From Myxococcales bacterium (lineage in GTDB: Bacteria > Myxococcota_A > UBA9160 > UBA4427), in contig DUCT01000257.1 of NCBI GenBank assembly GCA_012959665.1, positions 1-54,341 on the forward strand: a stretch of DNA of 54,341 nucleotides, written 5' to 3'. The notes below the pieces were generated by a model. That model saw only the letters and a list, made by a program, of their open reading frames with translations, did no database searches and was not told the origin of the DNA. Of this stretch, positions 24,402 through 51,247 are shown in pieces. A program made the position numbers and the translations under genes. Position 1 is the stretch's first letter. Each line of letters begins with the position of its first letter.

Positions 24402-25430
24402 TCAGTTCTTCATGCGCTTGCGGCCAAGAGCCACCAGGCCCGCTGCACCCGAAACCAGCAGCAAAACCGTGCCGGGCTCAGGAACGAACTTGAAGGTCTG
24501 GGTGAAAACGCCCGGGATAACGCCACTACCGAGCGGCCCAGTGTCGATCCGCGTGGGCGAGATCATCGTCACGGTACCGCCTACGGCGCTGGAGGCGAGA
24601 TTGTTGGTTCCGCTGAGGTTCGCGGTCTTCCGGGTCAAAACTGCTCCGCCTCCCGTACTAAAGAAACCGCCCAGGGTCGAGAGAGCCATGGCGCTAGCTC
24701 CTTCAATCTCCGTCAGTTTCAATTCAATTCCAATACCCGTTGCACCCCCGAGAGGACCGGGGCCTCCCGGTCGTGCGGGAACGGAGAGCACATTGGTCGT
24801 AAGGCCAGTAAGCTGAACCTTGCCGGTGACCCAGGGACCGCCCGTCGCGACGATCACATTCGCAGGGCCGCCGATTGTTACGCTGTCCTGCCCACCCAGG
24901 CCAATCGCACCCATGGGGAAAGGAATGGATCCGACAATGCTATTCAGGATAATGGCGCCACTGAAGGTGCCCGAGGTCGCCGCCCCACCCGCTCCCAGGC
25001 AGCCCGTTGCGCAGAGCGTATCCGAGCCGGCCGAGAAATTGGGGTTGAGAGCGGTCAAACCGCCGCCCCAGGGATTATTTGAAGCCACACCGCTCGCAAA
25101 GTTGCCCGTGTAAGTCGCTGCGTTGTTGGTCGCGGTCAGGGTCATGTTCACCAAGAGGGCAACGCCGGTCAGCAACGATGTCCCCGCCGTGATTCCAGAT
25201 CCCTGGAAAAGGCCAGCACTCGTCGTAATATCGTGGCCAACGATGCCATTGGTCAGTGTCGCCCCAGCACCCCCTGCGTAAGTCCCGGTAATCGTGATCG
25301 TCGGGAGAGCCGCAAGATTCACTTTGAAGGAACTGCCACCCGGAATCAAGACCGACGCAGTACTCGTCCCGGCGAGCAGTCCGCAGATTACCGTCACCGT
25401 GATGAAACTAGCTAATTTCTTTAACATCAT
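24402..25430 (-). CDS. Secreted Gly/Thr/Ser-rich protein with a C-terminal PEP-CTERM sorting domain (exosortase substrate type)
   Basis: N-terminal signal peptide (MMLKKLASFITVTVICGLLAGTSTA). The C-terminus is FVPEPGTVLLLVSGAAGLVALGRKRMKN, that is PEP motif, TM helix and basic tail. SD AAGGGG lies upstream. Confidence 0.9.
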   Translation of the reverse strand: MMLKKLASFITVTVICGLLAGTSTASVLIPGGSSFKVNLAALPTITITGTYAGGAGATLTNGIVGHDITTSAGLFQGSGITAGTSLLTGVALLVNMTLTATNNAATYTGNFASGVASNNPWGGGLTALNPNFSAGSDTLCATGCLGAGGAATSGTFSGAIILNSIVGSIPFPMGAIGLGGQDSVTIGGPANVIVATGGPWVTGKVQLTGLTTNVLSVPARPGGPGPLGGATGIGIELKLTEIEGASAMALSTLGGFFSTGGGAVLTRKTANLSGTNNLASSAVGGTVTMISPTRIDTGPLGSGVIPGVFTQTFKFVPEPGTVLLLVSGAAGLVALGRKRMKN

Positions 25431-26390
25431 CGTTGTCCCCTTGTCGCTGTCTCTGAGTCCCTAAGCGGAGCCTCATGAGAAATTAAATAGTTGTCTGTTG
25501 ATGTTGGTTGATGTCGATGCGGTTCTATTGATTCGATCTGGTTCGATCTGATTCGGTCCTAATGCGATAGATATTGATGCTGTCAGTTCACTCGGTCAAT
25601 TTAAACTTTCGAATTTTCTACAGATCTCTCAGGCGGAAGCCCTCTCCACACTAAGTCTCCTAAGGATTATGGTCAGGAACGGTCCCGGTTGTCCAGCCAT
25701 TTTGATGCTCCCAGCACAATTTTTATCATTTAGTACGGGCGTTTATTCGCGCTCTCGCTGAACAAATGAGCGCTCAATTGCAGCTCCGATCTCTCGGGGA
25801 AGGTCAGCTCGGAACCGGGACTATCTCGTGAAAACGAACTGTACCCGTCCTGCAGTGCGACCCTCTGGGGAGTTCCGTCGGTATTTTAATATTTACGACC
25901 CTCTTGCCACCGCCTAAGCCCGCTCTTGCCGCCCTCCTCCCGGCCGATTGCACTCGTTTTCCGGAGCCCCCACCCTAATTGATACGGAATACACGGCCCG
26001 CGGTGCCCCGCCCCCAAGGATCGGATTTTTCAACTCTCTCGCTTGAGAGTGCTCTCTACGGAGCCGAAGAGGCAGGGAAAAGGCAGCCGGAAGGCCCCCC
26101 CCTCGATCGATCGAAGAGATCTGGGATCGGGCACTCACTAATCGGGCTCGGGTAAGGAGGACCATTTTGCGGAACGCACCCGCGCGCTTCACGGCATCAA
26201 GACATCCTCGGCCGGGGTTCTGCCGCTATCCATCCATCGGGTATCCATCGGGTATCCATCGGGACCACTTGGAAGGAAACGGTTCGCACCCTAAGCTGCG
26301 AGGTCCCCGCGAGGGAGCGACTACACTTGGCGGGACTTGGCGGGCAATGACCTGAATAGGGTCAACCCATTTGGAGGCCCTTGAGCGCCC
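25431..26390. promoter_or_regulatory. 960-bp divergent intergenic region between the PEP-CTERM gene and the first TPR lipoprotein gene
   Basis: The section 25441-25760 is markedly AT-richer than its surroundings. Short tandem repeats lie at 25531-25556 (10 bp), 26232-26264 (11 bp x3) and 26325-26344 (10 bp x2). A 12-bp palindrome TCGATCGATCGA lies at 26103-26114. No promoter consensus recognised. Confidence 0.5.
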
Positions 26391-28826
26391 ATGTTTGAAA
26401 TTTTCTTTTCCTCGGGGTCACCCAGCCCTCGTACTTCTCGCCCGGTCCGCCGGGGACGGCGAACGTGCTTGCTCCTCCTGCTTCTCGGTGCATGGGCCGC
26501 ACTGGGCTGCGGACCCAACACCCAGAACCAGCTGGCCGAAATCCGTGCTCTCCAGGAAGCCGGACAATTCGACGCCTCGATCTCGCCGCTTCGGAGGCTC
26601 CTCTCAAGGGAGTCGCAAAGCCCCGAAGCCAACTTCAGGCTCGGGTTGGCTTTGCAGCAGTCGGGCAGGCCCAGCCTCGCGGTCTTCCCCCTGCAAAAAG
26701 CGGCGGCCAGCGATGCATACTCCGTCCAGGCCGGCCTGCTCCTGGCCTCCACCCTGGCATCGAGTCAGTCGTACCAGGAATCGATTCGGGCCTACGACCG
26801 GGTCCTCGAGAGCGAGCCCGAAAATATCGCAGCACTCTTTGGCCGCGGCCGCTCCCAGCTCGCGATTGGCAGGCCCGCGGAGGCCCTCGAGAGTTCCCAG
26901 CAGTTGTTGATTCTCCGGCCGGACGACCAGTTGGCAATCGTGCTCCAGGGCAGCGCCCTATTGGATCTGGATCGGCCCGAAGAGGCGGAGGCCGCCCTCG
27001 TCGGGGTTTTCGAGCGTGCCGCGGCGGCGAATGACCCCAACGACGCCGCCCGAAAGTGCGGAGCCCTCGGGCTCTTCTACCGGAGCCAGGACAACCACAA
27101 AGGGGCGGGAGAGACCTTTTCACGGTGTATCGCCGAATACCCGCTCAATGCACAACTCAGACAACACGCTTCGGATTTTTTCCTCGCCCGGGCCAACAAC
27201 GAACGCGCCATCGGTGTCTGGCGAACCGCCGTGGCGGCCAAACCCGAGGACCTGGCGCTACGCGCCAAGCTCGCCGAGATTCTCGCGAGCGTAGGAAGCC
27301 GCGCAAAAGCCCTCGAGGTGCTTGAGGAGAGTGTCGAACTCTTTGACTCCCCCCAGGCCTGGCGGATGCTCGCTGGCTACCAGCGCAGCCAGGGAAACCT
27401 CGTCGCAGCGCGGGAAGCCCTCGAAGCCTCCCTGGAACGCAGCCGGACCATTGCCCCCTCGCTGCAGTTCACCCTGGCCGACTTGCTCATCGAGGAGGGC
27501 AACTACGCCCGAGCAGCAGAAATCGCCGACGGATTGGAGGAACTCAGTTACCGCGCGATGATTCGAGGGGCGATCCTGTTGCGTCAGAACAAACCCGCCG
27601 AGGCCCTTGAAATGCTCGACACCGGACTCAAGCTCTATCCCAACAATGCCGGGGCGCGCTACTTGGCAGGCCAGGCGGCCCTCGGTGCAGGAGACAAGGA
27701 GAGGGCCCTCGCCGAATTCCGCGAGGCCATCCGGGTCTCGGAAACCGAAACCGACGCGGCGCTCAGACTCGCTGAACTCCACTTCCAGAAGGGCGAATAT
27801 CTCAACGCCCGGCAGTTTGCCAATCGTCACATCGCCAAGCGAATTTACAGCGAACCCGATGCGCACGTGGTGTCCGCCCGCAGTTCGATCATTCTGGGAG
27901 ACTACGAAGCCGCAGAAAGCACCCTAAACGCCCTCCGACAGAATTCCCCGACCCAGCCCACGGCCTACCTCGAGTTCGCCGAACTCGAGCGCCGGAAGTC
28001 GGGTCCGGAGGCCGCTCTGGCAGTCCTCCGGGAAGGCGGCTTTGATCTCGCCCAACTGGAGAACGAAGCCGTACTCCGCGCAGTGGCCCAGGACATGCTT
28101 TCCCTGGACCAAGGCGCCGCCGCCCTTGAACTCGTGACGAAGGCGGCGAATGCGAATCCCGAACTCCCCACTTATCACGATCTGCGTGGGCGACTCCTGC
28201 TCGAAGCCGGACAGACCGGCGAAGCCGAACGCGAGTTCTCCCTGGCACTCGATCGCGACTCCGAATTCGCCCCCAGCCTAGAAGCCCGGGGAACCCTGGC
28301 GCTTCGGGCCGGCGACTTCGCCCAAGCCCGGGCTCAATACGATCTCGCCGCACAGGCCGACCCGGACAACGCCCAGTATGTCTACCTCAAGGCCCAGACC
28401 GAATATCTCCAATCGAATTTGCAGAGCGCTGCTGAACTCTTCGGCCAGGCCCTCGAATTGGATTCCGCCCACGTCGGAGCCCACAACGATCTGGCCTGGC
28501 TGATGGCCAGCGCGGGTCGGGACCTTGAATCGGCCTTGAATCACGCTGCCCAGGCTGCTCGCCTGGACCCGAACGCGGACACCCTGGATACCCTCGGCTT
28601 TGTTTACCTCCAACTGGGCGATTTCAAGGAGGCCGTGGGCGTATTCAGCAAGGCCCTCGAGATCAGGCCAAACTCGCCGTCCATCGAGTTTCGGCTCGGC
28701 AGGGCGCTCTCCGAGAGCGGCGATCAGGAAGCCGCACGCGAGATGCTGAACAAAGCCCTGGAAACGCCGAACTTTCCCGAATCCGAGGATGCCCGCGCCG
28801 AGCTCGCCAAGCTCCAGCGGTCCTAA
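26391..28826 (+). CDS. Large TPR-repeat lipoprotein, PrsT-like (PEP-CTERM system TPR lipoprotein family), copy 1
   Basis: Lipobox LLLGAWAALGC/G is followed by about 780 aa of TPR-type A/L/Y-rich 34-mers. It is adjacent to the PEP-CTERM gene. Confidence 0.7.
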   Translation: MFEIFFSSGSPSPRTSRPVRRGRRTCLLLLLLGAWAALGCGPNTQNQLAEIRALQEAGQFDASISPLRRLLSRESQSPEANFRLGLALQQSGRPSLAVFPLQKAAASDAYSVQAGLLLASTLASSQSYQESIRAYDRVLESEPENIAALFGRGRSQLAIGRPAEALESSQQLLILRPDDQLAIVLQGSALLDLDRPEEAEAALVGVFERAAAANDPNDAARKCGALGLFYRSQDNHKGAGETFSRCIAEYPLNAQLRQHASDFFLARANNERAIGVWRTAVAAKPEDLALRAKLAEILASVGSRAKALEVLEESVELFDSPQAWRMLAGYQRSQGNLVAAREALEASLERSRTIAPSLQFTLADLLIEEGNYARAAEIADGLEELSYRAMIRGAILLRQNKPAEALEMLDTGLKLYPNNAGARYLAGQAALGAGDKERALAEFREAIRVSETETDAALRLAELHFQKGEYLNARQFANRHIAKRIYSEPDAHVVSARSSIILGDYEAAESTLNALRQNSPTQPTAYLEFAELERRKSGPEAALAVLREGGFDLAQLENEAVLRAVAQDMLSLDQGAAALELVTKAANANPELPTYHDLRGRLLLEAGQTGEAEREFSLALDRDSEFAPSLEARGTLALRAGDFAQARAQYDLAAQADPDNAQYVYLKAQTEYLQSNLQSAAELFGQALELDSAHVGAHNDLAWLMASAGRDLESALNHAAQAARLDPNADTLDTLGFVYLQLGDFKEAVGVFSKALEIRPNSPSIEFRLGRALSESGDQEAAREMLNKALETPNFPESEDARAELAKLQRS

Positions 28827-28874
28827 AAGCCTGTGGGGGAGGCCCCGGTCTTGAGAACAGAACGTCCCGGCCGA

Positions 28875-31358
28875 ATGCAAACGTTCCGGAGGGCCGGCCC
28901 GGTCAGCGGCCTCGTCATCGGCCTGGCTCTGGCCTGTGGTTCCGACGCCAACCGGGCCCAGTACCACCTGGGCCAAGCCGACAGCTTTCTCGCCGAGGGG
29001 CGTGGCCGAGAGGCGCTGATCGAACTCCACAGTGCCGCCCGCCTGGAACCGGGCAACGTGGATCTCAGCCTGCGCGTCGCGGAGACATCCCTACGGTACG
29101 GTTTTTTCGGCGACGCGGTGGACTTCTACCGGGACGCGCTCTCCTTTCGTCCGGAAGACTCCGAAGCTCAGCTGAATCTCGCGCAACTGCTGCTGGAGCT
29201 TGATCCCTCAGCGTCGAAGGCGCGGGTCAACGAAGTCCTCGCACGCGACCCCGACAACGCGAAGGCGTGGCTGATCCGGGCCCGTGCATCCCTGATCGCG
29301 GGAGACGTCGAATCCGCCATGTCACACATTGCTCAGGCGCGGAGAATCGACCTCTCGGAACCGGAGATTGATCGGGTCATGGCCCTCGCCTACGAAACCC
29401 GGGGCCGCGCGGCTCGGGCCCGAAATCCCATGGCCGTTCCGGCACCCCGGGTCACTCAATCGATTCTCCGGGCCTACGAGCGTTACCTTGCCAAGGGCGG
29501 TGAGTATCCCCTCATGGGCTACCTGGGACGGGCACGCACCCTGGCTCAACTTCCGGGACATTCGGCAGAGGCCCTGGAGGCCTTCGCCCAGGCGCTGGAC
29601 CAATGCCGGGAAATAGGCAGCCCCTATGAACACGTTCAGGTCGCCCGGGAGGCCGCCCGGGTCGCCCAGGTACTCGGTGATCCTGCACTCGCGAAGCGGG
29701 CCGCTCAATTTTGGATTGACACGACCCCCCGAGATATGGATGCCTGGAGGTCCTTCGCCGAACTCTCGGTGGAAGATCCCGAAACCCACCAACGCAGGGT
29801 CTACGAGGATCTCGTCCGCTCCCTTCCCGATCTTCCCGAAGCCCATGTCCTTTACGCCCACCACCTACTCCACCGCCAGGGGTACTCACGTGCAGTGGAC
29901 TACCTGAACGAGAGGCTTGGCCGGGGCGAGGGCGACGCCCTCCTCCTGATCGGCATCAGCGATCTCCAGAACCGCAGCCAGCGCTTTGCCGACGCTGCCA
30001 AGACCCTTGAGAAACTCCAGGCACAATTTCCGGACCTCCCGGCCGCCGCCCTGGCGCTTGGCGAGCATCAAGTGCTGAACGAGCAGTTCGAAGCCGGCGC
30101 CGCGACCCTGCAAGCCGGACTCCGAGAACAACCCACTTCCCACGGCTACCGATTACTGGCGCGCGCCGAACAGCGACAAAGCAACCTCCCCCAGGCCCTT
30201 GCCGCGATCAACAAGGCCATCGCCCTTGCCCATCGGGCGGACCCCAACAATCTCCGGCTGAAAGCACAAATCCACAGCGAGATGGGACAACACGCCAAGG
30301 CGGGAAACAGCCTGCTCCGCCTGGAACGCAAGGCCGGACTCCGCCCCCAGGAGAGGCTCTCCCTCGCCCTGAGTTACTACCTCCGGGGTACTCCGGGGGT
30401 CGGTCGCAAATTTCTCATCCAGTTGCTCGAAGCAGAAGACGCCGGACCTCGCGCGGCGTTGGAGTTCTCCCGCTGGGATGGGCAAAATCCCCGATACCGC
30501 CCGGCCGTTCGCCATCATCTAGCGAGCCGCTTCAAGGCGTTTCCCAACGACACCGCGCTTCTCACAGCGCTCACGGAAATGGACTGGGCCGACGGGCGTG
30601 TGGAGGAAGCGCGGGGGCGCCTGAACGCCGCCATCGATCTCCAGAGTTGGGTGGGCAAACCCTATCTGATTCGAGGAAATTTCTTGCTTGGCCTGGGAGA
30701 ACTCGTCGCGGCACGCGACGACGCGGAACGCGCGCTCAGGCTCGACCCCTCCACATCCAACGAGGCCTACAACATCATGACCGCGGCCTACATGAACAGC
30801 GGAAACCTGCCGAACCTGGTCGCCGCCATGGAAGCCCAAGCCGCCAAACGTGGGCTCTCCGCCGATCGTCTGGGCCTGCTGGCCCGGCTCAACCTAGGGA
30901 TCGGAAAAACCGTCCGTGCCCTCGAACTCTACGAGCAAGCCCTCGACGGGGGGAGCGATCTTCTCTTTGTGAAAAATGACCTCGCTTACCTTTTGGCAAG
31001 TTTGGGAGGCGACCTCGACCGGGCTCTCGCCCTGGCCCGAATGGCGACCGAAGCTCCGGGAGAGAATGTCTCCGCCGTCGATACCCTGGGCTACGTCTAC
31101 CTCAAGCTGGGCCAACCCGACGCCGCGGTCTGGCAGTTCCGACAGGCCGTTTCCGAAGCGGCGCCTCCGGTCCCCGACTACTACTTCCATCTGGGCCTTG
31201 CCTTGGTGAAGTTGGGCAAGGCCGAGCAGGCCCGAGCGGCTTTCCAAGAAGCGTTAGCCCTCAACCCGGAATTCAGTGATGCAGAGCAGGTTCGGCAATT
31301 GCTCAAAAAAAATTCGGGGGAGGGGGCGGAGGGCGCGACGGACGGACCCGCCTCCTAA
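28875..31358 (+). CDS. Large TPR-repeat lipoprotein, PrsT-like, copy 2
   Basis: Lipobox GLVIGLALAC/GS (ATG at 28875, MQTFRRAG) with TPR repeats throughout. It starts 49 nt after copy 1. Confidence 0.7.
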   Translation: MQTFRRAGPVSGLVIGLALACGSDANRAQYHLGQADSFLAEGRGREALIELHSAARLEPGNVDLSLRVAETSLRYGFFGDAVDFYRDALSFRPEDSEAQLNLAQLLLELDPSASKARVNEVLARDPDNAKAWLIRARASLIAGDVESAMSHIAQARRIDLSEPEIDRVMALAYETRGRAARARNPMAVPAPRVTQSILRAYERYLAKGGEYPLMGYLGRARTLAQLPGHSAEALEAFAQALDQCREIGSPYEHVQVAREAARVAQVLGDPALAKRAAQFWIDTTPRDMDAWRSFAELSVEDPETHQRRVYEDLVRSLPDLPEAHVLYAHHLLHRQGYSRAVDYLNERLGRGEGDALLLIGISDLQNRSQRFADAAKTLEKLQAQFPDLPAAALALGEHQVLNEQFEAGAATLQAGLREQPTSHGYRLLARAEQRQSNLPQALAAINKAIALAHRADPNNLRLKAQIHSEMGQHAKAGNSLLRLERKAGLRPQERLSLALSYYLRGTPGVGRKFLIQLLEAEDAGPRAALEFSRWDGQNPRYRPAVRHHLASRFKAFPNDTALLTALTEMDWADGRVEEARGRLNAAIDLQSWVGKPYLIRGNFLLGLGELVAARDDAERALRLDPSTSNEAYNIMTAAYMNSGNLPNLVAAMEAQAAKRGLSADRLGLLARLNLGIGKTVRALELYEQALDGGSDLLFVKNDLAYLLASLGGDLDRALALARMATEAPGENVSAVDTLGYVYLKLGQPDAAVWQFRQAVSEAAPPVPDYYFHLGLALVKLGKAEQARAAFQEALALNPEFSDAEQVRQLLKKNSGEGAEGATDGPAS

Positions 31359-31367
31359 GGAACGGGT

Positions 31368-33254
31368 CTATTCCCCGGATCGCTCAGCCTCGGCTCTTTT
31401 GGCCTGAAGGCGAAGCCGGAAGCCCAGTTCCTTGTGCAGCATTTCGGCGTCGTCGTACAGAGCCTCCCCGATGGGCCCGGGCCGGCCGGCCGCCCTCTCA
31501 AGCACCCGCGCCGCCGCTTCGAGATCATCGACGGCCACGTAGGCCTGGGCCAGCGCCCTGGCCTTGTAGTGGCTCGGGTCGGGCAGATGTCCCAGTCGAG
31601 AAATCCAATCCCGGGCCATCGCGCGCTTGATGGACACAAACTCGGGATCGTCCTGCATGGATGCGTAGGCGGAATCCTGAAGCAGATGATCCACCCGGTT
31701 GTAGCCCCGGGCATGAGCGGCGCGCAGGTGGTCCAGGGCCGCCTCTGAATCGCCGCGTCGGGCCGCCCGACTGGCCTTGCGCGTATTGGCGGCCGCCCCG
31801 TTGGGATAATTCAGTTCGGCATCGGCCATCAAGCTCTCCGCCGAATAGAAGACACTGGCTCGCTGGTAGCTGATGAATCCAAGAACGCACAGAAGAGCAA
31901 TCGCGCCGCCGAAGAGGCCCGCGCGCAAAGAGGCGACCCGCCGCCCACCGCCCAAGCGAGTTTCGAGGCTGGGCCATGCCGACTGGCCCGCCAGCAGGGC
32001 CCCGCCAATCAGACCGGGCAGGATGAAGTAGAGGTAGCGGTCGGCCATGGGATAGGGGAGCGCCACGATGCCCGAAAGCGGGGCGAAACCAACCGCTGCC
32101 CAGATCCAGTAGGCGGCTTCCTGCCTTCGGGCCCGAAGACAGAACACGACCCTCCAGCCGAGGAGGCCGATGAGCAACACCCCGCCCAGAAACCAGGGAT
32201 CCGCCAGGGAGGCCACCGGGGGCGGTTCGTGAAAGATCGAAAGACCCGTACCGCTCACGGCCATGAGGCCGTACCGCAGCGCCACGGAAAAGATCATGCC
32301 TCCGCGAACCAGGGGATCGGAGTACAGGGGAGGCGCCAGCCCCGCCGACAGGGAGAAGGCCAGGGCTTCGGCGACCCCGAAGCCGATGACCACGGCGACC
32401 GCCGCCAAGCCCCAGCCCGCCCGGGCCCGAATGTCCTGACCGCCACCCTCCGCCGACTCTCGGCCAAGCCAGTCGAAGAGGACCACCACGAAGAGCGCCG
32501 AGGCCGCAAAGGGCTTGGCGAGCAGGGCCAGGGCGAAGAGAAGCAGGGCTATCGCCGGGCGCCGGCGGTACAGGAGAATCGTACCCAGGGAGAGCACCAG
32601 CGCCGACGAACTCTTGAGTTGGGAGATCCAGGCAACGGACTCGACGTTCGCGGGATGCAGCAGGAAAAAGGCCGCCCCCAAGGCCGCCGGCCAGGGCCGA
32701 ACCCCACTGCGCCGGAACAAGAGCCCCAGCAAGGTCGCCGCCCAGGCGTGGAGCAGGACATTCACCCAGTGGTAACCCCGGACGTCGGGACCGAAAAATT
32801 GCCACTCCACGGCGTGCAGGGTGAGATGAACCGGCGCGTAGTTCTCCACCAACTCGGCCACTTCGCTGGTGGGATTCCAGATCGCCCATGCGTTCGCGAG
32901 GCTCGGCGTGTGGATGTACTCGTTGTGCGCCACATAGTGGAGATCGTCGGAGATGAACTCCCCCTCGAGGCTCGGGGCATAGACGAGTAGGGCGAGCAGA
33001 GCGAACGCCAGGCCGAGCCCAATAGAACTTCGCGGACCGCCGGAACCGGCCGGCGAGGAGTTCCCCCCTGCCCTCTTGGGCCCCGCTTGATTCCCCCGGG
33101 ATCTGGCCAGGAGTTGCTCCTCCGTCGGTGTCCGACCCGACGCGATCCCCGAAAGGAGCGCCGTCTCTAGCGGGAATAACCCCTTGGGTGGGCTTGATGA
33201 AATCGCCAGGCATCCGCCAGGATATCCTTGAGTTCCGAGTGCCTGGGCTGCCAA
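31368..33254 (-). CDS. GT-C fold membrane protein with a C-terminal TPR domain (TMTC/DUF1736-like O-mannosyltransferase architecture); start uncertain
   Basis: LEGEFISDDLHYVAHNEYI loop motif, about 10 TM segments and a C-terminal soluble TPR-like region. The TTG at 33254 overlaps the galE 3' end by 88 nt, so the real start is probably further in. Confidence 0.6.
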   Translation of the reverse strand: MAAQALGTQGYPGGCLAISSSPPKGLFPLETALLSGIASGRTPTEEQLLARSRGNQAGPKRAGGNSSPAGSGGPRSSIGLGLAFALLALLVYAPSLEGEFISDDLHYVAHNEYIHTPSLANAWAIWNPTSEVAELVENYAPVHLTLHAVEWQFFGPDVRGYHWVNVLLHAWAATLLGLLFRRSGVRPWPAALGAAFFLLHPANVESVAWISQLKSSSALVLSLGTILLYRRRPAIALLLFALALLAKPFAASALFVVVLFDWLGRESAEGGGQDIRARAGWGLAAVAVVIGFGVAEALAFSLSAGLAPPLYSDPLVRGGMIFSVALRYGLMAVSGTGLSIFHEPPPVASLADPWFLGGVLLIGLLGWRVVFCLRARRQEAAYWIWAAVGFAPLSGIVALPYPMADRYLYFILPGLIGGALLAGQSAWPSLETRLGGGRRVASLRAGLFGGAIALLCVLGFISYQRASVFYSAESLMADAELNYPNGAAANTRKASRAARRGDSEAALDHLRAAHARGYNRVDHLLQDSAYASMQDDPEFVSIKRAMARDWISRLGHLPDPSHYKARALAQAYVAVDDLEAAARVLERAAGRPGPIGEALYDDAEMLHKELGFRLRLQAKRAEAERSGE

Positions 33255-34198: not shown

Positions 34199-34239
34199 GG
34201 CTCGGCGCATAATACACAAAGAGACACGGGAGCCGACAG

Positions 34240-40175: not shown

Positions 40176-40775
40176 TCACGCCGCGGGAACGAGCCCGGTG
40201 GGCTCGTCGACCAGACGGTAACGGCGACCGCAGCGGCAGGCGAGGTCGGCCCCCAGAGAGGCGGCGCACTCGCACACCCAGGCGATCCGCCGGGCGGGAT
40301 TCCCCGCCACCAGAGCGTGGGCCGGCACGTCCCGGGTCACTACGGCACCCGCCGCCACGAAGGCATGCTCGCCGACTGTGTGGCCGCAAACCACGGTGAC
40401 ATTCGCGCCCAGGGACGCCCCGCGACAAATCCGGGTGGGAACGAATTCCGCCGGCGGCAGGGCCCGAACCGCCCGGGGGCGTAGGTCATTGGTGAAGGTG
40501 GCGTTGGGGCCGACGAAAACGTCGTTCTCGAGTTCGACCCCATCCCACACCTGGACGCCGTTCTTGACCACCACCCCATCGCCAACCACCGCGCCGTCCT
40601 CGATGAAGGTTTGGCCACAAAGGTTGCAGTTGCGCCCGACGACGGCTCCAGCCATCACGTGGGACAGAGCCCAGACCCGGGTTCCGGCGCCCACCGTTTC
40701 GCTCTCGCACAGGGCATGGGGATGGACGAAAACTCCGTCCGGTCTCTCTGTCAGGCTCAATTCATGCTCTCCCAT
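40176..40775 (-). CDS. Left-handed beta-helix N-acetyltransferase, WbpD/WlbB-like
   Basis: Hexapeptide repeats: VGAGTRVWALSHVMAGAVVGRNCNLCGQTFIEDGAVVGDGVVVKNGVQVWDGVELENDVFVGPNATFTND. Confidence 0.75.
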   Translation of the reverse strand: MGEHELSLTERPDGVFVHPHALCESETVGAGTRVWALSHVMAGAVVGRNCNLCGQTFIEDGAVVGDGVVVKNGVQVWDGVELENDVFVGPNATFTNDLRPRAVRALPPAEFVPTRICRGASLGANVTVVCGHTVGEHAFVAAGAVVTRDVPAHALVAGNPARRIAWVCECAASLGADLACRCGRRYRLVDEPTGLVPAA

Positions 40776-43741: not shown

Positions 43742-45160
43742 TCAGGAACCCGGATCGGTGCTGGGCTCCCGCCCTTCGATGTCACTTTCCAGCGGCGCCT
43801 CGTAACCCAGGGCCCGCAATTCCTCGATGTGCTCCGGGGCCATGGGGCCGGCCAACACCCGGGGAACGCGACGCTCGAGATAGTCGACCAGACCCCGGAA
43901 AGCCCGGGAATCCAGCTCCGCCGGACGCCACTCCCCCCCGGCTCCAAGCCGGGCGGTCTCGGATTGGGTGGGCCTTCCCGGCCCATCGGCCCGATCCGAG
44001 AGATCGGAGCCCGCGATCCGGGTCCAGGCACCCGATCCGTAGGCGGCGCTCTCGCCGTCGGTGTCGCAGAAGATCAGCCGATCCTCGGGAACCTCTTCAC
44101 CCCGCAACTGCGCGCGAAGGGGTCGGCCACTCGCCCCGGGCAAACCCGGCAGCCCCGCCAGGGCGAGCAAGGTCGGCGCGATGTCCACATGGCTCACCGG
44201 CCCGGCGATCCGCCCGGGCACCAGGCCCGGTGCCGCGACGATGAAGGGCACCCGGGCCAGTTCCGGGGACGTGGACTGGCCGTGCTGAAAGAACCATCCA
44301 TTTTCGCCCAGGCTTTCCCCATGGTCCGCCGTGAGCAGGATGACGCTGCCCCGCTCACCGCTGCGCTTCTCGACGGCGGAGATCACCTGGCCCGCCCAGT
44401 GATCCGCGTATTGAATCTCTTCGGCGTAACGGGCCGCATAGAGCGCGGGATCGCGCATTTCACCCAGGGCCTGGTAAAAGGGAATGCCCGCCCGACCAAA
44501 ATTTTCCGAGAGCACCACGAGGTCGCTCTGCAGTTTCAGGGGCACCCGGTCGACCTTGCCCGACCACCCGGGCGGGGGCGTGTAGGGACCGTGGGGATCC
44601 TGGAGGTGAAGCCAGAGAAAGATCGGCTTGCCCGGCGAACGCCCCCCCAACCAGGCCAGGGCCCGGCGGGCGGTGGCTTCGGCAAAGCGTTCGAAGTAGC
44701 GATCGCGATTCTGCTCCTGGGCGGGCAGCTCGTCGTCGTAGGTCTCAAAGCCGCGATCCAGGCCCATCCTTCGGCGCAGGACAACATTGCTGATGAAAGC
44801 CGCGGTTTCGTAGCCCGCCTCGGCGAAATGCTCGGCCAGGGTGGGAAGCCCTTCGAGTCGCGTGTCCCCGTTGCGCGACCCCACCGAATGTTCGCGTACG
44901 TACCGCGAAGTCATGATGGACGCGTGGGCCGGAGCGGTCAGGGTCGCCGCCGCAATCGCGTTCTCAAAAAGAACGCCCCGGGCCGCCAACGCGTCCATGG
45001 ACGGTGTGATCTCCAGGGGAAATCCGTAGGCGTGAATGTAATCCGGCCGGAGCGTATCCACGGTGATCAGCAGTACATCGGCGCCCGGCGCCTGAACCTG
45101 CGCTCGGCAAGCGAACTGCAGCACCAGGAGCCCAAGCAGAGCGGGAAGTCCCCTTCTCAT
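43742..45160 (-). CDS. Secreted sulfatase-fold (alkaline phosphatase superfamily) protein with Thr-x-Pro-x-His in place of Cys-x-Pro-x-Arg
   Basis: Signal peptide, LLITVDTLRPDYIHAYGF and TADHGE. The nucleophile region reads ATLTAPAHASIMTS. The C-terminal region carries LRALGY. Confidence 0.8.
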   Translation of the reverse strand: MRRGLPALLGLLVLQFACRAQVQAPGADVLLITVDTLRPDYIHAYGFPLEITPSMDALAARGVLFENAIAAATLTAPAHASIMTSRYVREHSVGSRNGDTRLEGLPTLAEHFAEAGYETAAFISNVVLRRRMGLDRGFETYDDELPAQEQNRDRYFERFAEATARRALAWLGGRSPGKPIFLWLHLQDPHGPYTPPPGWSGKVDRVPLKLQSDLVVLSENFGRAGIPFYQALGEMRDPALYAARYAEEIQYADHWAGQVISAVEKRSGERGSVILLTADHGESLGENGWFFQHGQSTSPELARVPFIVAAPGLVPGRIAGPVSHVDIAPTLLALAGLPGLPGASGRPLRAQLRGEEVPEDRLIFCDTDGESAAYGSGAWTRIAGSDLSDRADGPGRPTQSETARLGAGGEWRPAELDSRAFRGLVDYLERRVPRVLAGPMAPEHIEELRALGYEAPLESDIEGREPSTDPGS

Positions 45161-48476: not shown

Positions 48477-49247
48477 ATGACGGAAACCATTCTTGTCGTC
48501 CCGTGCTTCGATGAAGCCCCTCGGCTGCGGGTCGACCGCTTCTCGGAATACCTGCAACAAGACCCCGATACCGACTTTCTCTTCGTGGACGATGGCAGCC
48601 AAGACGAGACGCCGCGGATATTGGCGGCCCTGGCCGAGGGTTCGGCGGGCCGGGTCGCGGTCCTCACCCAGCCGACCAATCGCGGCAAGGCCGAAGCGGT
48701 TCGCCTGGGGATGAAGCACGCCTTCGAGCGCGGGGTCCGCTACGCGGGGTATTTTGACGCGGATCTCGCCACTCCCCTGGGCGAATTGAGCCGGCTCCGT
48801 GCGGTGCTCGACGAGCACCCGAACATCGAAATGGCCTTCGGCTCGCGCGTGCAACTGCTCGGCCGAAACATTCAGCGCCGGCCCCTGCGCCACTATCTGG
48901 GTCGGGTCTTCGCCACCGTGGCCTCGGAGGTGCTTGGGTTGGCGGTATACGACACCCAGTGCGGGGCCAAACTCTTTCGCACCGGGCCCGAGGTCCGCGA
49001 ACTCTTTGACGAGCCCTTCCTGTCCAGTTGGGTTTTCGATGTTGAACTGATCGCGCGGTGGCGGGCCGCAGAGCAACAACCGGGCCGGCGACCCGCCGGC
49101 GAGGTCATCTACGAGTTGCCCATCAACGAATGGGTGGACGTGACCGGATCGAAAGTACGCCCCAGTGATTTCGTTCGTGCGCTGGTGGAAATCGGGCGTA
49201 TCCGGCGCCGCTATTTCCGGGATTTCGGCCGGGCGGGGCGTGAATGA
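48477..49247 (+). CDS. GT2 glycosyltransferase, ALG5-like (polyprenyl-phosphate beta-glucosyltransferase type)
   Basis: ILVVPCFDEAPRL, LFVDDGSQDET, YFDADLATP and YDTQCGAKLFR. ATG at 48477. Confidence 0.8.
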   Translation: MTETILVVPCFDEAPRLRVDRFSEYLQQDPDTDFLFVDDGSQDETPRILAALAEGSAGRVAVLTQPTNRGKAEAVRLGMKHAFERGVRYAGYFDADLATPLGELSRLRAVLDEHPNIEMAFGSRVQLLGRNIQRRPLRHYLGRVFATVASEVLGLAVYDTQCGAKLFRTGPEVRELFDEPFLSSWVFDVELIARWRAAEQQPGRRPAGEVIYELPINEWVDVTGSKVRPSDFVRALVEIGRIRRRYFRDFGRAGRE

Positions 49248-51247
49248 ACCCCGCCCCCAGCGGCCTTTTTCGCCTTCAAGCCGGAGCCTGGGGGGCGTTG
49301 GGGATTCTGTGCGCGGGCCTGCTTGGCCACGCGATCCTGTTCGACGAAGAGGTGCCTTTCGTGCGAGCCGCGGGCGGGCCCGCCTGGATCATGGCCGCCC
49401 TGCCCCAAACCGCCGACCTGATTGCCGTAGACCCCGCCGCGCCCCCGGCCTACGTCTTTCGCAAGCAGTTTCAAGCCGGGGCCAAAGGGGGTGAGGCTCA
49501 CCTTAGGGGCCGCGCGCTCCGCCACGCTCTCGTACACCTGAACGGTGAGTCCGTTCCCCTGGTGGCCCGGGGAAACGGCTGGAAGCAGGGCTTCGAAGCC
49601 GATCTGCGGGGACGCCTGCGCGAGGGCACGAACAACCTGCGCGTCTCGGTCAGTAACCCCGCCGGGCCAGCCCTGGTGCAACTCGAAGTCGACACCCCCG
49701 GCGGACGCGTGGTCACCGATTCCAGCTGGCAGGTCGTCGCGGGCCCGGGCGCCCCGGGCTACGCCGAAGTCGCCACGGACGTCGCCCTCCACCCCGAGTC
49801 CAGGCAACTGCCCACCCCCCTGGAAGGCGCACCACGCCAAGCCGCCCTTCTCTTCCTGATCTTTGCCGGGACCGCCGGCCTTGCCTGGCGAAGGCCCGGC
49901 TGGACCCGGCGGATCCGCGATGCCCATTGGCCGGTTTTGACCCTGGCCGCAATTACGCTCTTCTGGCTGGCGCTCTTCGGTCTCAAGTTCTGGCGCATTC
50001 CGCTCGGGATCGGCTTCGACGCCCCGGGCCACCTGGCCTACATCGACTTCCTGCTCGAATTCCGCGCCCTGCCCACCGCCGCGTACGGGTTCTCCACCTA
50101 TCACCCCCCGCTCTTCTATGCGATGACCGCCGCCCTGGTCGAGTTCTTCGGAGTCACCGCCGACACCGTGGCCGGGCGAATCGTCTACCACGCAATTCCC
50201 TTCGCCTCGGGGTTGGCCAACGTCTGGCTCACCGCATGGGTGGCCCGGCAGCTCTGGCCCCAGGAGGGTCTGCGGCCCAGCCTCGCCATCGCCACAGCCG
50301 GGCTCCTCCCCATGAACCTCTACATGTCCGCCTACGTCTCCAACGAGCCTTTGCTCGCCGCCTGGGTCAGCGCCGCGCTGGCCTTGGGCACGAGCGTCCT
50401 CCTGGCCCAGCGGGTTCGCCTTCGGGTCCTGGCGTCCCTGGCCGGAGTCCTGGGAGCGGCCCTGCTGACCAAGTTCACCGCTCTGGCCGTGGCACCGGGG
50501 ATCGCGTTCTTCGTCGCGTTGCGAGACGGGTGGGGGGAGGGGAGGGGCGGTCCCGGGCGCGCCCTGGCACGCTTCGGCGGTCTGATGCTCGGCGCCGGCG
50601 CCATCGCGGCCTGGTTCTACTGGCGCAATTGGACACTCTTCGGCGACCCCCTGGTTTGGAATCTCGACGTACCCGGTGCCGCCACCTGGTGGATGCGGCC
50701 CGGCTTCCATACCTCGGCCTGGTATCTGGACTTCGGCGAGTCACTCTCCCATCCCCTCTTCGCGGGCTACGCCTCGTTCTGGGATGGGGTCTATTCGACA
50801 CTCTGGGGCGACGGGCTGGTGGCCGGCATGGCCCGAGCCAGCACTCGGCACGAGTTCTGGAATCACCCCTTCCAGGGACTCACCTACCTTCTTGCGCTAC
50901 CGGTCACCGGGGTCATGGCCGCCGGGGCGATCCGCCTCTGGCAACGCTCCCTGGTGGATCCGTCCCTCGGCCGACGGCTCGTTTTGAGCATGCACACCGC
51001 AGTGCTCTTCGGTCTGGCCTTCTCTCTGCTCTTGATCAGCCTACGCCTACCCTTCTACGCCCAGGCCAAGGCCTTTTACCTTCTTTGCGGAGTCCTTCCC
51101 CTCGCCCTGGCCAGCGCCGAGGGGCTCGGCGGAGCGGCGAGATGGCTCGGACGATCCCCCGGCCCGTGGTCCCGAGCCCTGGGCTGCGCGGGGCTCGGAT
51201 GGCTGACAAGCCTGGCGGCATGCATCGTGCTGGCCCACTTGGGCTAA
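49244..51247 (+). CDS. GT-C fold (PMT_2-like) membrane glycosyltransferase with an N-terminal periplasmic beta-sandwich-like domain
   Basis: The ATG overlaps the preceding stop (ATGA). One TM is followed by about 170 aa containing VHLNGESV...GFEADLRGRLREGTNNLRVSVSN (a galactose-binding-domain-like pattern). Next come the GIGFDAPGHLAYIDF loop and at least 11 TM segments. Confidence 0.6.
   Translation: MNPAPSGLFRLQAGAWGALGILCAGLLGHAILFDEEVPFVRAAGGPAWIMAALPQTADLIAVDPAAPPAYVFRKQFQAGAKGGEAHLRGRALRHALVHLNGESVPLVARGNGWKQGFEADLRGRLREGTNNLRVSVSNPAGPALVQLEVDTPGGRVVTDSSWQVVAGPGAPGYAEVATDVALHPESRQLPTPLEGAPRQAALLFLIFAGTAGLAWRRPGWTRRIRDAHWPVLTLAAITLFWLALFGLKFWRIPLGIGFDAPGHLAYIDFLLEFRALPTAAYGFSTYHPPLFYAMTAALVEFFGVTADTVAGRIVYHAIPFASGLANVWLTAWVARQLWPQEGLRPSLAIATAGLLPMNLYMSAYVSNEPLLAAWVSAALALGTSVLLAQRVRLRVLASLAGVLGAALLTKFTALAVAPGIAFFVALRDGWGEGRGGPGRALARFGGLMLGAGAIAAWFYWRNWTLFGDPLVWNLDVPGAATWWMRPGFHTSAWYLDFGESLSHPLFAGYASFWDGVYSTLWGDGLVAGMARASTRHEFWNHPFQGLTYLLALPVTGVMAAGAIRLWQRSLVDPSLGRRLVLSMHTAVLFGLAFSLLLISLRLPFYAQAKAFYLLCGVLPLALASAEGLGGAARWLGRSPGPWSRALGCAGLGWLTSLAACIVLAHLG

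Follow-up and report, generated by a model that had tools for sequence, protein, structure and literature searches.

What would a cluster that joins a PEP-CTERM gene to polyprenyl-phosphate sugar synthases and membrane glycosyltransferases make? This question is raised by an uncultured marine myxobacterium, in which a cluster of about 29 kb (22637-51247 of the window, the whole 54,341-nucleotide stretch analysed) is tiled with 20 genes, encoding one PEP-CTERM protein (the cargo), two TPR lipoproteins of about 800 aa, three GT2 enzymes and five polytopic proteins. A preliminary description was essentially right in gene content and coordinates, but its inventory was incomplete and left out several conserved members: GalE, an amino-sugar trio resembling WbpB/E/D, a methyltransferase and three alkaline-phosphatase-superfamily (sulfatase-family) proteins. 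The features are listed below with strand and evidence.

22637..24208, minus: membrane-anchored alkaline-phosphatase-superfamily ('sulfatase' Pfam) protein; PF00884, 162 bits
24402..25430, minus: PEP-CTERM cargo protein, 342 aa, signal peptide; TIGR02595, family alignment, synteny
25431..26390, no strand: divergent intergenic region between cargo and TPR1, 960 bp, short tandem repeats; sequence
26391..28826, plus: TPR lipoprotein 1, 811 aa, ALGC lipobox; TIGR02917, 221 bits, many TPR Pfam families
28833..31358, plus: TPR lipoprotein 2, ~835-841 aa; TIGR02917, 150 bits, conserved 3' of TPR1
31368..33254, minus: polytopic protein with C-terminal TPR region, probable GT-C; hhalign, D33-D34, 24 loci
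33167..34219, minus: UDP-glucose/GlcNAc 4-epimerase GalE; TIGR01179, 412.6 bits (cutoff 262)
34240..35463, plus: GT2 polyprenyl-phosphate glycosyltransferase-like, 4-TM C-terminal domain; PF00535, 85 bits
35460..36062, plus: SAM-dependent methyltransferase, 200 aa, GTG start; Methyltransf_23/11/12/25
36115..37818, plus: GT-C, PMT_2/ArnT-like; PMT_2 in orthologues, YYDEAF motif
37839..40109, minus: AglB-type STT3 homologue, 756 aa; TIGR04154, AglB_L1, family profile
40176..40775, minus: hexapeptide-repeat acyltransferase, WbpD/PglD-like; Hexapep, 62.6 bits; NeuD/PglB/VioB family, 75 bits, sub-threshold
40762..42018, minus: DegT/WbpE-type sugar aminotransferase; PF01041, 340.6 bits
41874..43016, minus: GFO/IDH/MocA sugar dehydrogenase, WbpB / UDP-GlcNAc 3-dehydrogenase-like, likely start 42917; PF01408, 91 bits; NF040723, 155 bits, sub-threshold
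42985..43707, minus: soluble GT2, DPMS/PpgS/AglJ-like; PDB matches DPMS (5MLZ, 7e-11), then ArnC
43742..45160, minus: secreted S1-sulfatase-family protein; PF00884, 157 bits
45157..46680, minus: secreted S1-sulfatase-family protein; PF00884, 174 bits
46677..48329, minus: GT-C fold, family without Pfam model; AF2 model, Foldseek
48477..49247, plus: soluble GT2; PF00535, 61.7 bits, conserved in 13 loci
49244..51247, plus: GT-C, PMT_2/ArnT-like, with lectin/CBM-like beta-sandwich; AF2 model, PMT_2 in homologues
Outside the cluster, 15332-16561: GT87 protein; 28 bits (cutoff 25)

The cluster retains its PEP-CTERM gene across genomes

The same gene order recurred in about 20 Myxococcota MAGs, with STT3 identity falling to 41%. 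Among independent loci, order and orientation were kept in some 20 from MAGs and some 10 from metagenomes, at identities as low as about 40%, so that the clustering exceeds chance. In loci retrieved with the cargo as query (homologues of 28-90% identity), the neighbours were always alike, with a divergent TPR1-TPR2-(TPR-bearing GT-C)-GT2 arrangement on one flank and the same sulfatase-family gene and ddl on the opposite flank. Homologues of the 22637 protein (one N-terminal TM segment; 45-98% identity) directly followed the cargo at eight loci among others, and adjacency of TPR lipoprotein 1 to the cargo gene was also conserved. Cargo, TPR1/2 and the STT3-like gene stayed grouped in distant paralogous clusters, the minimal versions consisting of these genes and the TPR-bearing GT-C. 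Co-occurrence of the PEP-CTERM gene with the island, as proposed earlier, was borne out by both sets of loci; the gene is a conserved cluster member and not a chance neighbour. Operon linkage was likewise upheld by stop/start overlaps. MBOAT/AlgX genes were also seen near the cluster.

The cargo scored above the TIGR02595 cutoff (19.2 against 16) and below that of Pfam PF07589 (19 against 20.7). It is rich in Gly (18%) and Thr (13%) and ends in FVPEPGTVLLLVSGAAGLVALGRKRMKN; its family alignment showed common GNF, VPF, GLGG, PWTTG and PTxIST motifs and a near-identical tail. Cargo homologues carry 1-5 N-x-S/T sites each, and no N-x-S/T column was conserved in this alignment. The island had been described as bracketed by a PEP-CTERM gene and two PrsT-like lipoproteins. 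The first assignment stood with TIGR02595, and the second was sub-threshold: PrsT (TIGR02917) was the best match of both TPR lipoproteins at scores below the cutoff of 312, and no PrsK or PrsR was found by profile search of the window genes. In the cargo/TPR1 intergenic region, an Rfam search returned no match and no sigma-54 consensus was found above chance.

Lipid-linked sugar synthases and GT-C proteins

The three GT2 enzymes reported at 34240, 42985 and 48477 were confirmed, with ArnC, DPMS and GtrB as their best solved relatives. The 34240 GT2 matched ArnC (2e-10), DPMS (7e-9) and GtrB (1e-6) in the PDB and AglJ and dolichyl-P hexose transferase best among NCBIfam models, and its public gene call lists PF26629 (GT2_TM_C). 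No other gene of the cluster was as strongly conserved as the 42985 GT2 (72-97% identity, 24 loci). The family profile of the 48477 GT2 matched ArnC (1.6e-8), DPMS and GtrB; public gene calls missed this gene, an antisense ORF of 800 aa being called in its place. Stop/start coupling to the next gene was found as described for 48477 and the 49244 GT-C (ATGA). The stop of the 34240 GT2 also overlaps a start (GTGA), but its partner is the overlooked methyltransferase and not a GT-C; this methyltransferase sits between the GT2 and GT-C genes at 18 loci.

Four of the five polytopic proteins described as GT-C enzymes could be shown to have this fold: 37839 by AglB/STT3 homology, 46677 and 49244 by structure prediction and 36115 by PMT_2 matches of its orthologues (13 of 16, best 1.6e-10). 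The 36115 protein itself scored 25.6 bits, slightly below the PMT_2 cutoff of 26.1, and bears a YYDEAF motif in its first loop. The 46677 protein had no match in Pfam or NCBIfam searches; its AF2 model (pLDDT 94.2) matched exclusively GT-C structures (28/28 of the top Foldseek matches), including ALG12, STT3, ArnT, ALG9, AftA, AglB and Pmt4, and its first loop has an invariant WxDE. None of its 111 homologues is annotated. The 49244 model (pLDDT 91.5) matched AglB, ArnT, Pmt4 and ALG3, and many homologues contain PMT_2. Its N-terminal lectin/CBM-like beta-sandwich (residues ~40-180) is predicted to be periplasmic; being of a carbohydrate-binding type, this modelled domain suggests that the acceptor is a glycan, in the 49244 step at least. 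The fifth protein, 31368 (likely true start 32933-33044), had no match in a Pfam GT-C search. D33-D34 in its first loop is invariant, and its family aligned with the confirmed GT-C family of 49244 (hhalign probability 61%, E 8e-5). Since this alignment is the sole support, we regard it as a probable, unproven GT-C. The sixth candidate, at 15332-16561, was confirmed by its GT87 score.

The AglB/STT3 homologue has lost WWDYG

The claim of an STT3-like oligosaccharyltransferase held for homology but not for canonical function. The protein, for which a start at 40109 is preferable to 40148, matched TIGR04154 (255 bits, E 1e-75) and AglB_L1 (60.6 bits), and its family profile matched A. fulgidus AglB-L (3WAJ, E 5e-49). 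All AglB donor and metal residues were kept, with D52, D164-H165-H166, E349 and Q417/R419 invariant in the family. Unlike AglB, however, the homologue carries AHANLGH opposite SWWDYGH; WWDYG was gone in 86/87 relatives, replaced by (A/S)HANLGH-type sequences, and the DK-motif region was unconserved. Judged from these residues, the protein cannot be a canonical N-OST. Its loss of WWDYG with donor and metal residues intact is our main new point and, because the Ser/Thr pocket is missing, acceptor recognition would not proceed via N-x-S/T.

Export genes and sulfatase-family proteins

Family profiles detected no Wzx, Wzy, Wza, Wzc, ABC exporter or priming transferase (PGT) among the window genes, nor in the 10 kb past either end in near-identical public contigs. 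The absence noted earlier is true of this interval; a priming transferase and an exporter could be encoded elsewhere in the genome. No flippase gene was identified within the window. Relatives carry an LPG_synthase_TM gene.

At the position of the sulfatase C/S-x-P-x-R motif, the 43742 protein has T-A-P-A-H, conserved in 14 orthologues, and the 45157 protein a conserved T-G-P-S-H, aligned with CSPTR of a solved sulfatase. The active-site motif is absent from two of the three sulfatase-family proteins, the two checked in detail.

Discussion

Collectively, the data suggest, with slightly less than even confidence, that uncultured marine Myxococcota have a dedicated extracytoplasmic glycosylation system, fed by polyprenyl-phosphate-linked sugars and with a functional link to a single PEP-CTERM surface-protein family. 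The earlier periplasmic-glycosylation interpretation is supported in part: its GT2/GT-C inventory, operons, missing export set and cargo membership survive, whereas the STT3-like protein departs from a canonical N-OST, the PrsT assignment is sub-threshold and the PEP-CTERM protein is a putative acceptor. By homology, these genes form a full set for a putative polyprenyl-phosphate-sugar route. Cytoplasmic GalE and the WbpB/WbpE/WbpD-like trio would supply UDP-sugars, including a 3-amino or 3-acetamido sugar; the three GT2 enzymes would place single sugars on polyprenyl phosphate, one being modified by the methyltransferase. The lipid-linked sugars would reach the periplasmic face. There, the AglB-type STT3 homologue and the TPR-bearing GT-C may begin glycosylation of the acceptor and the remaining GT-Cs add sugars singly, one gripping the growing glycan with its lectin-like domain. 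The two TPR lipoproteins may serve in substrate presentation, the Thr-type alkaline-phosphatase-superfamily proteins may attach or strip a phospho-substituent, and an exosortase encoded elsewhere would process the PEP-CTERM tail.

TPR-bearing GT-Cs and STT3 enzymes are characteristic of protein glycosylation (TMTC/PMT, OST). By adjacency alone, the PEP-CTERM protein would be the likeliest acceptor. Its few, unconserved N-x-S/T sites count against this role, and a free glycan or glycolipid product would fit the lectin-like domain and the MBOAT/AlgX neighbours equally well.

The cluster could instead make an amino-sugar glycolipid or surface glycan to which exosortase links the new C-terminus of the cargo, a reading that we find unlikely. 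The cargo would be attached to the glycan and itself undecorated, and the STT3 homologue would take the completed glycan off its polyprenyl carrier and pass it to an acceptor in the envelope or to a lipid. This likens PEP-CTERM cargo to T9SS cargo, joined to A-LPS by a Wbp/Vim-pathway linking sugar, and agrees with the amino-sugar acceptor proposed for exosortase (PMC7468200). WbpB/WbpE-like genes were kept in the operon and the acetyltransferase was missing at five loci, so a free 3-amino group would remain; the window itself, however, encodes this acetyltransferase, and the minimal paralogous clusters retain cargo, TPR and STT3-like genes without any Wbp-like genes. The lost sequon pocket, the lectin-like domain on one GT-C and the cargo without conserved sequons suit an attached glycan, whereas the TPR lipoproteins and TPR-GT-C suggest handling of a protein substrate, and an exosortase gene was found in none of the flanks retrieved.

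We consider it improbable that an envelope polymer synthesized elsewhere, such as lipid A/LPS core or O-antigen, receives single sugars from the GT2/GT-C pairs, as it would from ArnC/ArnT, GtrB/GtrC or PpgS/Rv3779, with the PEP-CTERM protein and TPR lipoproteins as co-regulated neighbours and non-substrates. The nearest solved GT2 relatives (ArnC, DPMS, GtrB), the PMT_2/ArnT-like GT-Cs and the PEtN-transferase-like sulfatase-family proteins are consistent with such a role, as is the location among the housekeeping genes ddl, uvrD and glmS/glmU, in conserved synteny. Lipid A also uses GnnA/GnnB-like chemistry, which the dehydrogenase and aminotransferase pair resembles. Five polytopic GT-C/STT3 proteins nevertheless far exceed known single-sugar modification systems, the reduced clusters of distant genomes still unite cargo, TPR and STT3-like genes, and the AglB-type enzyme is not known to act in LPS modification. 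A chance pile-up of glycosyltransferase genes, or weak calls that are ORF artefacts, is highly improbable: the 63% GC window does contain many spurious long ORFs, public gene callers differ at 46677-49247 and several family matches lie under curated cutoffs, but this is contradicted by conservation across about 30 independent loci, by overlapping start/stop codons and by high-confidence structure models.

Because a PEP-CTERM protein, makers of lipid-linked sugars, membrane glycosyltransferases and an archaeal-type oligosaccharyltransferase without the customary protein-recognition motif are joined in one conserved cluster, the locus looks like an undescribed bacterial route for the sugar-coating of an extracytoplasmic target.

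Organisation of the island

The gene map was built from an ORF listing with codon-position GC together with Pfam and NCBIfam scans, and was gap-free. The window (63% GC) is identical or nearly identical to public contigs from uncultured Myxococcota MAGs (GCA_029936055.1 JAPOGI010000236.1 and two sister assemblies) and to JGI 3300001683 GBIDBA_10000141. Positions 1-22559 mainly encode housekeeping functions (FKBP, MazG, two PilB/PilT-type ATPases, GatA/GatB, a DEAD helicase, LarE and Ddl); the two ATPase genes, of the T2SSE family, lie adjacent at the left end (1596-4180) and are unrelated to the island. All genes from 22637 to 51247 are plausibly glycan-related, with UvrD next. They are named here by start coordinate:

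22637-24208, minus: membrane-anchored alkaline-phosphatase-superfamily protein (AP, PF00884)
24402-25430, minus: PEP-CTERM protein, hereafter the cargo
between the cargo gene and TPR1: divergent intergenic region, 960 bp
26391-31358, plus: two TPR lipoproteins of about 800 aa (TPR1 and TPR2)
31368-33254, minus: polytopic protein with a TPR region (TPR-GT-C)
next after the 31368-33254 protein: GalE (TIGR01179, 412 bits)
34240, 35460 and 36115, plus-strand operon: GT2, methyltransferase (GTGA overlap), PMT_2-type GT-C
48329 to 37839, minus-strand operon of eight genes: GT-C (46677), two secreted PF00884 proteins, GT2 (42985), GFO-type dehydrogenase, DegT aminotransferase, hexapeptide acyltransferase, STT3 homologue
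48477 and 49244, divergent pair: GT2 and GT-C (ATGA overlap)

Several junctions in the eight-gene operon overlap as ATGA or GTGA. The gene coordinates of the preliminary description were right overall, except that 40109 is a better start for the STT3 homologue and that the methyltransferase gene had been missed. Public annotations of the near-identical contigs differ at one point: they carry an 800-aa ORF at 46677-49079 (minus) and omit the GT2 at 48477-49247 (plus), to which the first 250 codons of that ORF are antisense. Since the GT2 has a Pfam match and is kept in 13 loci, we rejected the 800-aa ORF as an antisense over-extension and retained the GT2 call of the preliminary description. 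Rfam and tRNA scans of the window gave no match. Short perfect or near-perfect tandem repeats (units of 10-20 bp, 2-3 copies) occur at 25508-25559, 26232-26263 and 26325-26344 in the relatively AT-rich 960-bp region and are possible regulator-binding sites.

The PEP-CTERM gene is a conserved member of the cluster

A scan of a genome collection seeded with the STT3 alignment returned 69 loci, nearly all from uncultured Myxococcota or 'Deltaproteobacteria' MAGs, some genomes carrying 2-3 paralogues. About 20 of these loci (41-91% STT3 identity) keep the common order GT2_48477 / GT-C_46677 / AP / AP / GT2_42985 / GFO / DegT / (acyltransferase) / STT3, followed by GT-C_36115 / methyltransferase / GT2_34240 / (GalE) / TPR-GT-C / TPR2 / TPR1. 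Distant STT3 paralogues (33-39% identity) sit in reduced clusters consisting of an AP-like gene (minus), a PEP-CTERM gene (minus), TPR1 and TPR2 (plus), the STT3-like gene (plus), an SGNH esterase, the TPR-GT-C (minus) and a methyltransferase. The PEP-CTERM proteins of these reduced clusters are 28-39% identical to the cargo of the window and share its motifs, and their tails are nearly identical to its tail.

Metagenomes were scanned independently, with the cargo alignment as seed. In the loci with enough flanking sequence (L079, L082, L090, L094, L101, L108, L116 and L120), the upstream side of the cargo gene starts with a divergent TPR1, after which come TPR2, TPR-GT-C and GT2_34240, and the downstream side has a 22637-type AP gene and ddl. 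These conserved neighbours indicate that the cluster truly includes both the cargo and 22637 genes. The island had been placed at 24402-51247; the cargo gene therefore belongs to it as proposed, and the left border moves to 22637.

The cargo has a C-terminal PEP motif, a TM helix and a basic tail (VPEPGTVLLLVSGAAGLVALGRKRMKN). The PEP-CTERM call made from the sequence was borne out by TIGR02595 (19.2 bits, cutoff 16), with PF07589 just below its threshold (19 versus 20.7). PrsT (TIGR02917) is the best match of both TPR lipoproteins, as had been suggested; with 221 and 150 bits where the cutoff is 312, their PrsT-like label stands below the threshold of the family. Pfam and NCBIfam scans of the window revealed no kinase or response regulator (PrsK/PrsR). 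We also rejected a sigma-54 promoter for the cargo gene: the consensus matched 8 times in comparison with 7.2 expected by chance, and none of the matches was upstream of that gene.

Several relatives show variations on this arrangement. Two or three STT3 paralogues lacking the WWDYG motif (see below) occur per genome in differing contexts (L006/L029/L057 in MAG OFTM73; L021/L048/L055 in MAG MFD05684), and some such loci have PEP-CTERM genes of their own (three in L029, two in L059). Some relatives encode an additional 8-TM protein that carries TPRs at its C-terminus; its gene separates the cargo gene from the 22637-type gene, and its TM part has no Pfam match (L120:11183-12844, L034:16700-18400, L042:18281-19942, L050:5309-6994). 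Themes of acyl and methyl modification recur in the reduced clusters, where the gene next after the STT3-like one encodes a GDSL/SGNH esterase, and uvrD has a methyltransferase gene beside it (L025:6969-8168, L068:12677-13354).

An AglB-type STT3 homologue without the WWDYG motif

The 37839 protein matched TIGR04154 with an E-value of 1e-75 (255 bits, under the equivalog cutoff of 450) and AglB_L1 (PF18079) above its cutoff (60.6 versus 23.6 bits), whereas PF02516 (STT3) reached just 17 bits (cutoff 24.5). Its family profile aligned with Archaeoglobus fulgidus AglB-L (3WAJ) at 5e-49, covering residues 9-600 and 650-750, and with PglB at about 4e-3. By sequence comparison, the protein is unambiguously homologous to the STT3 transmembrane core and to the AglB periplasmic domains. 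Residues D52, D164-H165-H166, E349 and Q417/R419 are invariant in an alignment of 26 members; D52, D164-H166, E349 and R419 align with D47, D161/H163, E360 and R426 of AglB.

The WWDYG motif is replaced in all 26 aligned members by [AS][HP][AP]N[LF]GH, and in the HMM alignment AHANLGH falls column for column on SWWDYGH of AglB-L. Among 87 STT3 homologues, only the most distant one has WWDYG. The segment aligned with the AglB DK motif has no conserved D..K, in a stretch where the alignment is of low confidence. In canonical enzymes, WWD hydrogen-bonds the +2 Ser/Thr of the sequon. Because this motif is lost while the donor and metal residues are kept, members of the clade are expected to keep binding a metal and a donor linked to lipid phosphate, without recognising N-x-S/T. 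In line with this prediction, cargo proteins contain 1-5 N-x-S/T sites each, none of them in a conserved column of the family alignment. The STT3-like oligosaccharyltransferase (OST) homologue of the preliminary description thus retains its AglB homology and catalytic residues; with WWDYG gone, it is best described, as far as its sequence tells, as a non-canonical OST.

Three GT2 enzymes and a set of GT-C proteins

The closest solved relatives of all three GT2s are the polyprenyl-phosphate glycosyltransferases ArnC, Pyrococcus furiosus DPMS and GtrB. GT2_34240 matched ArnC (2e-10), DPMS (7e-9) and GtrB (1e-6), GT2_42985 matched DPMS (7e-11) and ArnC (2.5e-6), and the GT2_48477 family profile matched ArnC (1.6e-8), DPMS (1e-5) and GtrB (6e-5) in its N-terminal half only. 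The best NCBIfam models were AglJ, a haloarchaeal dolichyl-P hexose transferase, PpgS and ArnC, all under their curated cutoffs. As proposed from the sequence, the three catalytic domains are thus nearest to known lipid-phosphate sugar synthases of the DPM1/ALG5/GtrB kind. GT2_34240 has four C-terminal TM segments and a PF26629 (GT2_TM_C) domain; GT2_42985 and GT2_48477 have no predicted TM segment, which is also the case for some DPM1 and PpgS types. GT2_42985 (72-97% identity) and GT2_34240 (64-86%) are the most conserved genes of the cluster.

The marks of a GT-C protein are a polytopic N-terminal module whose first external loop has an acidic motif, and the GT-C fold in three dimensions. 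Homology or structure prediction places the 37839, 46677, 49244, 36115 and 15332 proteins in this class, so five of the six GT-C candidates put forward earlier hold, and the 31368 protein is a probable one. The 46677 family comprises 111 'hypothetical' homologues, none annotated and none with a Pfam domain. In a Foldseek search of the PDB, the top matches of the 46677 AlphaFold model (pLDDT 94.2) were exclusively GT-C enzymes (ALG12, STT3, ArnT, ALG9, AftA, AglB, Pmt4, PglB and EmbB). The 49244 model (pLDDT 91.5) matched AglB, ArnT, Pmt4, STT3, ALG3 and PimE, and many homologues of this protein have a PMT_2 match; at residues ~40-180 the model predicts a beta-sandwich resembling carbohydrate-binding modules of alpha-L-rhamnosidases and a fungal lectin. 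PMT_2 was also matched by 13 of the 16 orthologues of the 36115 protein.

The 31368 family is very large (229 phmmer representatives below 1e-30) and has an invariant DD in the first loop. Pfam and PDB sequence searches with the 31368 protein gave no GT-C match, and Pfam scans of 19 and then 40 family members returned TPR matches only. An hhalign comparison with a confirmed GT-C family (61% probability, E 8e-5) is the sole link to GT-C, and we consider the protein a probable member of the fold. PDB sequence-profile searches with the four non-STT3 polytopic proteins found no meaningful match. Narrow locus-derived alignments were uninformative in hhalign; a moderate signal came solely from the broader alignments A7 (49244 family) and A9.

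An additional module lies 3.4 kb upstream of the island (15332-19222), where a GT87-type GT-C (28 bits versus a cutoff of 25) precedes an MBOAT protein (AlgI/DltB-like) and an AlgX/DHHW SGNH protein. This trio is an O-acylation module for an extracytoplasmic glycan. As GT87 and AlgX homologues recur beyond ddl in L090, L101 and L110, it may be part of the same system as the island.

Amino-sugar genes and sulfatase-fold proteins

Genes for dehydrogenase, aminotransferase and acetyltransferase classes (WbpB/WbpE/WbpD-like) are adjacent with overlapping codons; all specific NCBIfam scores were below cutoff, WbpA is absent beside the trio, and the acetyltransferase is missing from some orthologous loci.

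The two PF00884 proteins within the operon belong to the sulfatase fold family and lack the C/S-x-P-x-R site of type I (formylglycine) S1 sulfatases. At this position the 43742 protein has TAPAH and the 45157 protein TGPSH, both conserved in 14 orthologues of each, and this T-x-P-x-H aligns with CSPTR of a solved carrageenan sulfatase. As read from this motif, the two proteins cannot form formylglycine, which rules out working sulfatases for these two of the three PF00884 copies. NPP-type phosphodiesterases and PEtN transferases typically use a Thr nucleophile; we therefore infer a role in phospho-transfer or phospho-hydrolysis rather than desulfation. GlmS and GlmU (UDP-GlcNAc supply) and a Sulfotransfer_3 gene are encoded just past UvrD, in the 10 kb beyond the right end of the window (599-9249 of L074-L076), and may have a bearing on which sugars are used and on the sulfatase-fold proteins.

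Export, priming and exosortase genes are absent from the island and its flanks

No gene of the window matched the Pfam or NCBIfam families of Wzx, Wzy, Wzc, Wza, ABC transporters or priming phosphoglycosyltransferases. The preliminary description had proposed a periplasmic glycosylation system partly on the basis of this absence, a reading at odds with an export set and an initiating transferase immediately outside the window. Gene calls of the near-identical contigs showed no export, polymerase or priming gene within 10 kb of either end, so the proposal withstood this local check. The right flank encodes SnoaL, GlmS, GlmU, HflX, FabH, the Sulfotransfer_3 protein and HIT, and the left flank an esterase, UvrA, MscS, SDRs and an amidohydrolase.

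No exosortase (EpsH/Xrt) was found in the window or its 10-kb flanks. Unexplained polytopic ORFs, screened in all collected loci, comprised more GT-Cs, the 8-TM protein with TPRs and LPG_synthase_TM proteins, and no exosortase. The LPG_synthase_TM proteins, which resemble the MprF flippase domain, lie at the cluster edge in two relatives (L014:932-1930, L021:106-1116), both without GT2_48477 and GT-C_46677. Their family hints at candidate flippases of lipid-linked sugars.

Relation to known glycosylation systems

The individual parts of the island are of known kinds: DPM1/ArnC-type GT2s, GT-C enzymes and an STT3/AglB protein. Our literature search found no description of their combination, namely an archaeal-type STT3 without WWDYG, four further GT-Cs (one of an unmodelled family), Thr-type sulfatase-fold proteins, a conserved PEP-CTERM cargo and TPR lipoproteins.

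The STT3 homologue is nearest to archaeal AglB. As in the Haloferax Agl pathway (AglJ/AglD Dol-P-hexose synthases, AglP methyltransferase, AglS GT-C and AglB), two of the GT2s match AglJ or the dolichyl-P hexose transferase best, and a methyltransferase accompanies a GT-C predicted to use a lipid-P-sugar. Unlike Agl, the island is found in a bacterium with an outer membrane, lacks the WWDYG and apparently the DK motif, has four extra GT-Cs instead of cytoplasmic GT-A/GT-B extension enzymes, and is tied to PEP-CTERM rather than to PGF-CTERM/archaeosortase. Lumenal N-glycan assembly in the eukaryotic ER (DPM1/ALG5; ALG3/9/12/6/8/10; STT3) follows the same logic of GT2-made lipid-P-sugars, far-side GT-Cs and STT3, and the 46677 protein finds its best structural matches in ALG12, ALG9 and STT3. 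These matches have TM-scores of just about 0.5, however, with no sequence family membership found; the island also lacks an ALG7/13/14-type cytoplasmic start, and its STT3 acceptor pocket differs.

Among bacterial systems, ArnC/ArnT, GtrB/GtrC(GtrA) and PpgS/Rv3779 likewise combine a GT2 and a GT-C in one operon, and GT-Cs of the island are PMT_2/ArnT-like. Those systems transfer one sugar onto lipid A, O-antigen or arabinogalactan with one GT-C each, whereas three GT2s and five GT-Cs are co-conserved here with a sorted protein, and no GtrA-type flippase is seen. Campylobacter Pgl shares a bacterial STT3-family enzyme clustered with amino-sugar genes (DegT and acetyltransferase); the island, in contrast, has no PglC-type priming enzyme, PglK flippase or cytoplasmic GTs, its enzyme is AglB-type and WWDYG-less, and the cargo shows no sign of D/E-x-N-x-S/T logic. 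Mycobacterial GT-Cs (EmbA-C, AftA-D, PimE) polymerise or branch glycans outside the membrane from decaprenyl-P-sugars, and AftA, EmbB and PimE are among the structural matches of the island GT-Cs, but lineage, sugars and acceptors are unrelated and an STT3-type enzyme or sorted-protein partner is lacking.

PEP-CTERM/exosortase EPS loci (Haft et al. 2006, PMC1569441) share a PEP-CTERM gene with a long upstream intergenic region, adjoining glycosyltransferases and a large PrsT-like TPR lipoprotein. The island and its vicinity differ in lacking an exosortase, PrsK/PrsR, a sigma-54 motif and Wzx/Wzy/Wza-type EPS genes; its TPR proteins are below the PrsT cutoff, and its glycosyltransferases are GT-Cs predicted to be fed by lipid-P-sugars.

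Proposed pathway and significance

The enzyme classes, folds, operon structure and conservation established for the island, together with the altered STT3 pocket, led us to the following model. Cytoplasmic enzymes would produce three lipid-P-sugars, of which one would probably derive from a 3-amino or 3-acetamido sugar and another would carry a methyl group; after flipping, a step for which the LPG_synthase_TM proteins may be candidates, the periplasmic GT-Cs would consume them. Euryarchaeota use a monophosphate-linked carrier that requires no priming phosphoglycosyltransferase; an AglB-type enzyme with a monophosphate-linked donor would likewise make such a transferase unnecessary.

That an STT3 homologue and a TPR-bearing GT-C are both paired with two TPR lipoproteins and one cargo family points to the cargo as the likeliest acceptor, a tentative assignment to which we give a little less than an even chance. 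It is rather unlikely, but conceivable, that the cluster instead produces an anchor glycan to which exosortase joins the cargo. That reading follows the precedent of T9SS cargo attached to A-LPS via a Wbp/Vim linking sugar, and the speculation that exosortase joins its cargo to an amino-sugar compound (PMC7468200). A C-terminally sorted family linked to WbpB/E/D-type genes would be common to both cases; sorting signal and machinery differ and VimA/VimE/WbpA homologues are absent, which makes this an analogy only. A general envelope modification by the locus appears unlikely. The absence of a sequon pocket, the Wbp-like genes for amino sugars and the lectin-like domain are compatible with it, as they are with a glycan joined to the cargo by exosortase.

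Since 2006 it has been a question what becomes of PEP-CTERM proteins once exosortase has cleaved them, and whether, and by what means, they acquire glycans (PMC1569441). The island offers specific candidate enzymes for PEP-CTERM glycosylation, conserved beside one cargo family. The large WWDYG-less STT3/AglB clade with its catalytic residues predicts a new acceptor specificity in a textbook enzyme family, of interest for glycoengineering, and the cluster also holds a GT-C family without a Pfam model or annotated member (46677) and non-formylglycine sulfatase-family proteins. DPM1/ALG5-like synthases, several GT-Cs and an archaeal-type STT3 in a bacterium bear on the evolution of lumenal and periplasmic glycan assembly. 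A bolder and, in our estimate, doubtful proposal is that this clade of Myxococcota possesses a bacterial version of the archaeal and ER-lumenal route, its AglB-type STT3 re-tooled for non-sequon modification of PEP-CTERM proteins or for joining glycan and cargo during exosortase sorting. If true, PEP-CTERM sorting and the attachment of glycans would be connected biochemically by such an enzyme, filling a long-standing gap, and STT3-family enzymes would gain a new class of acceptor.
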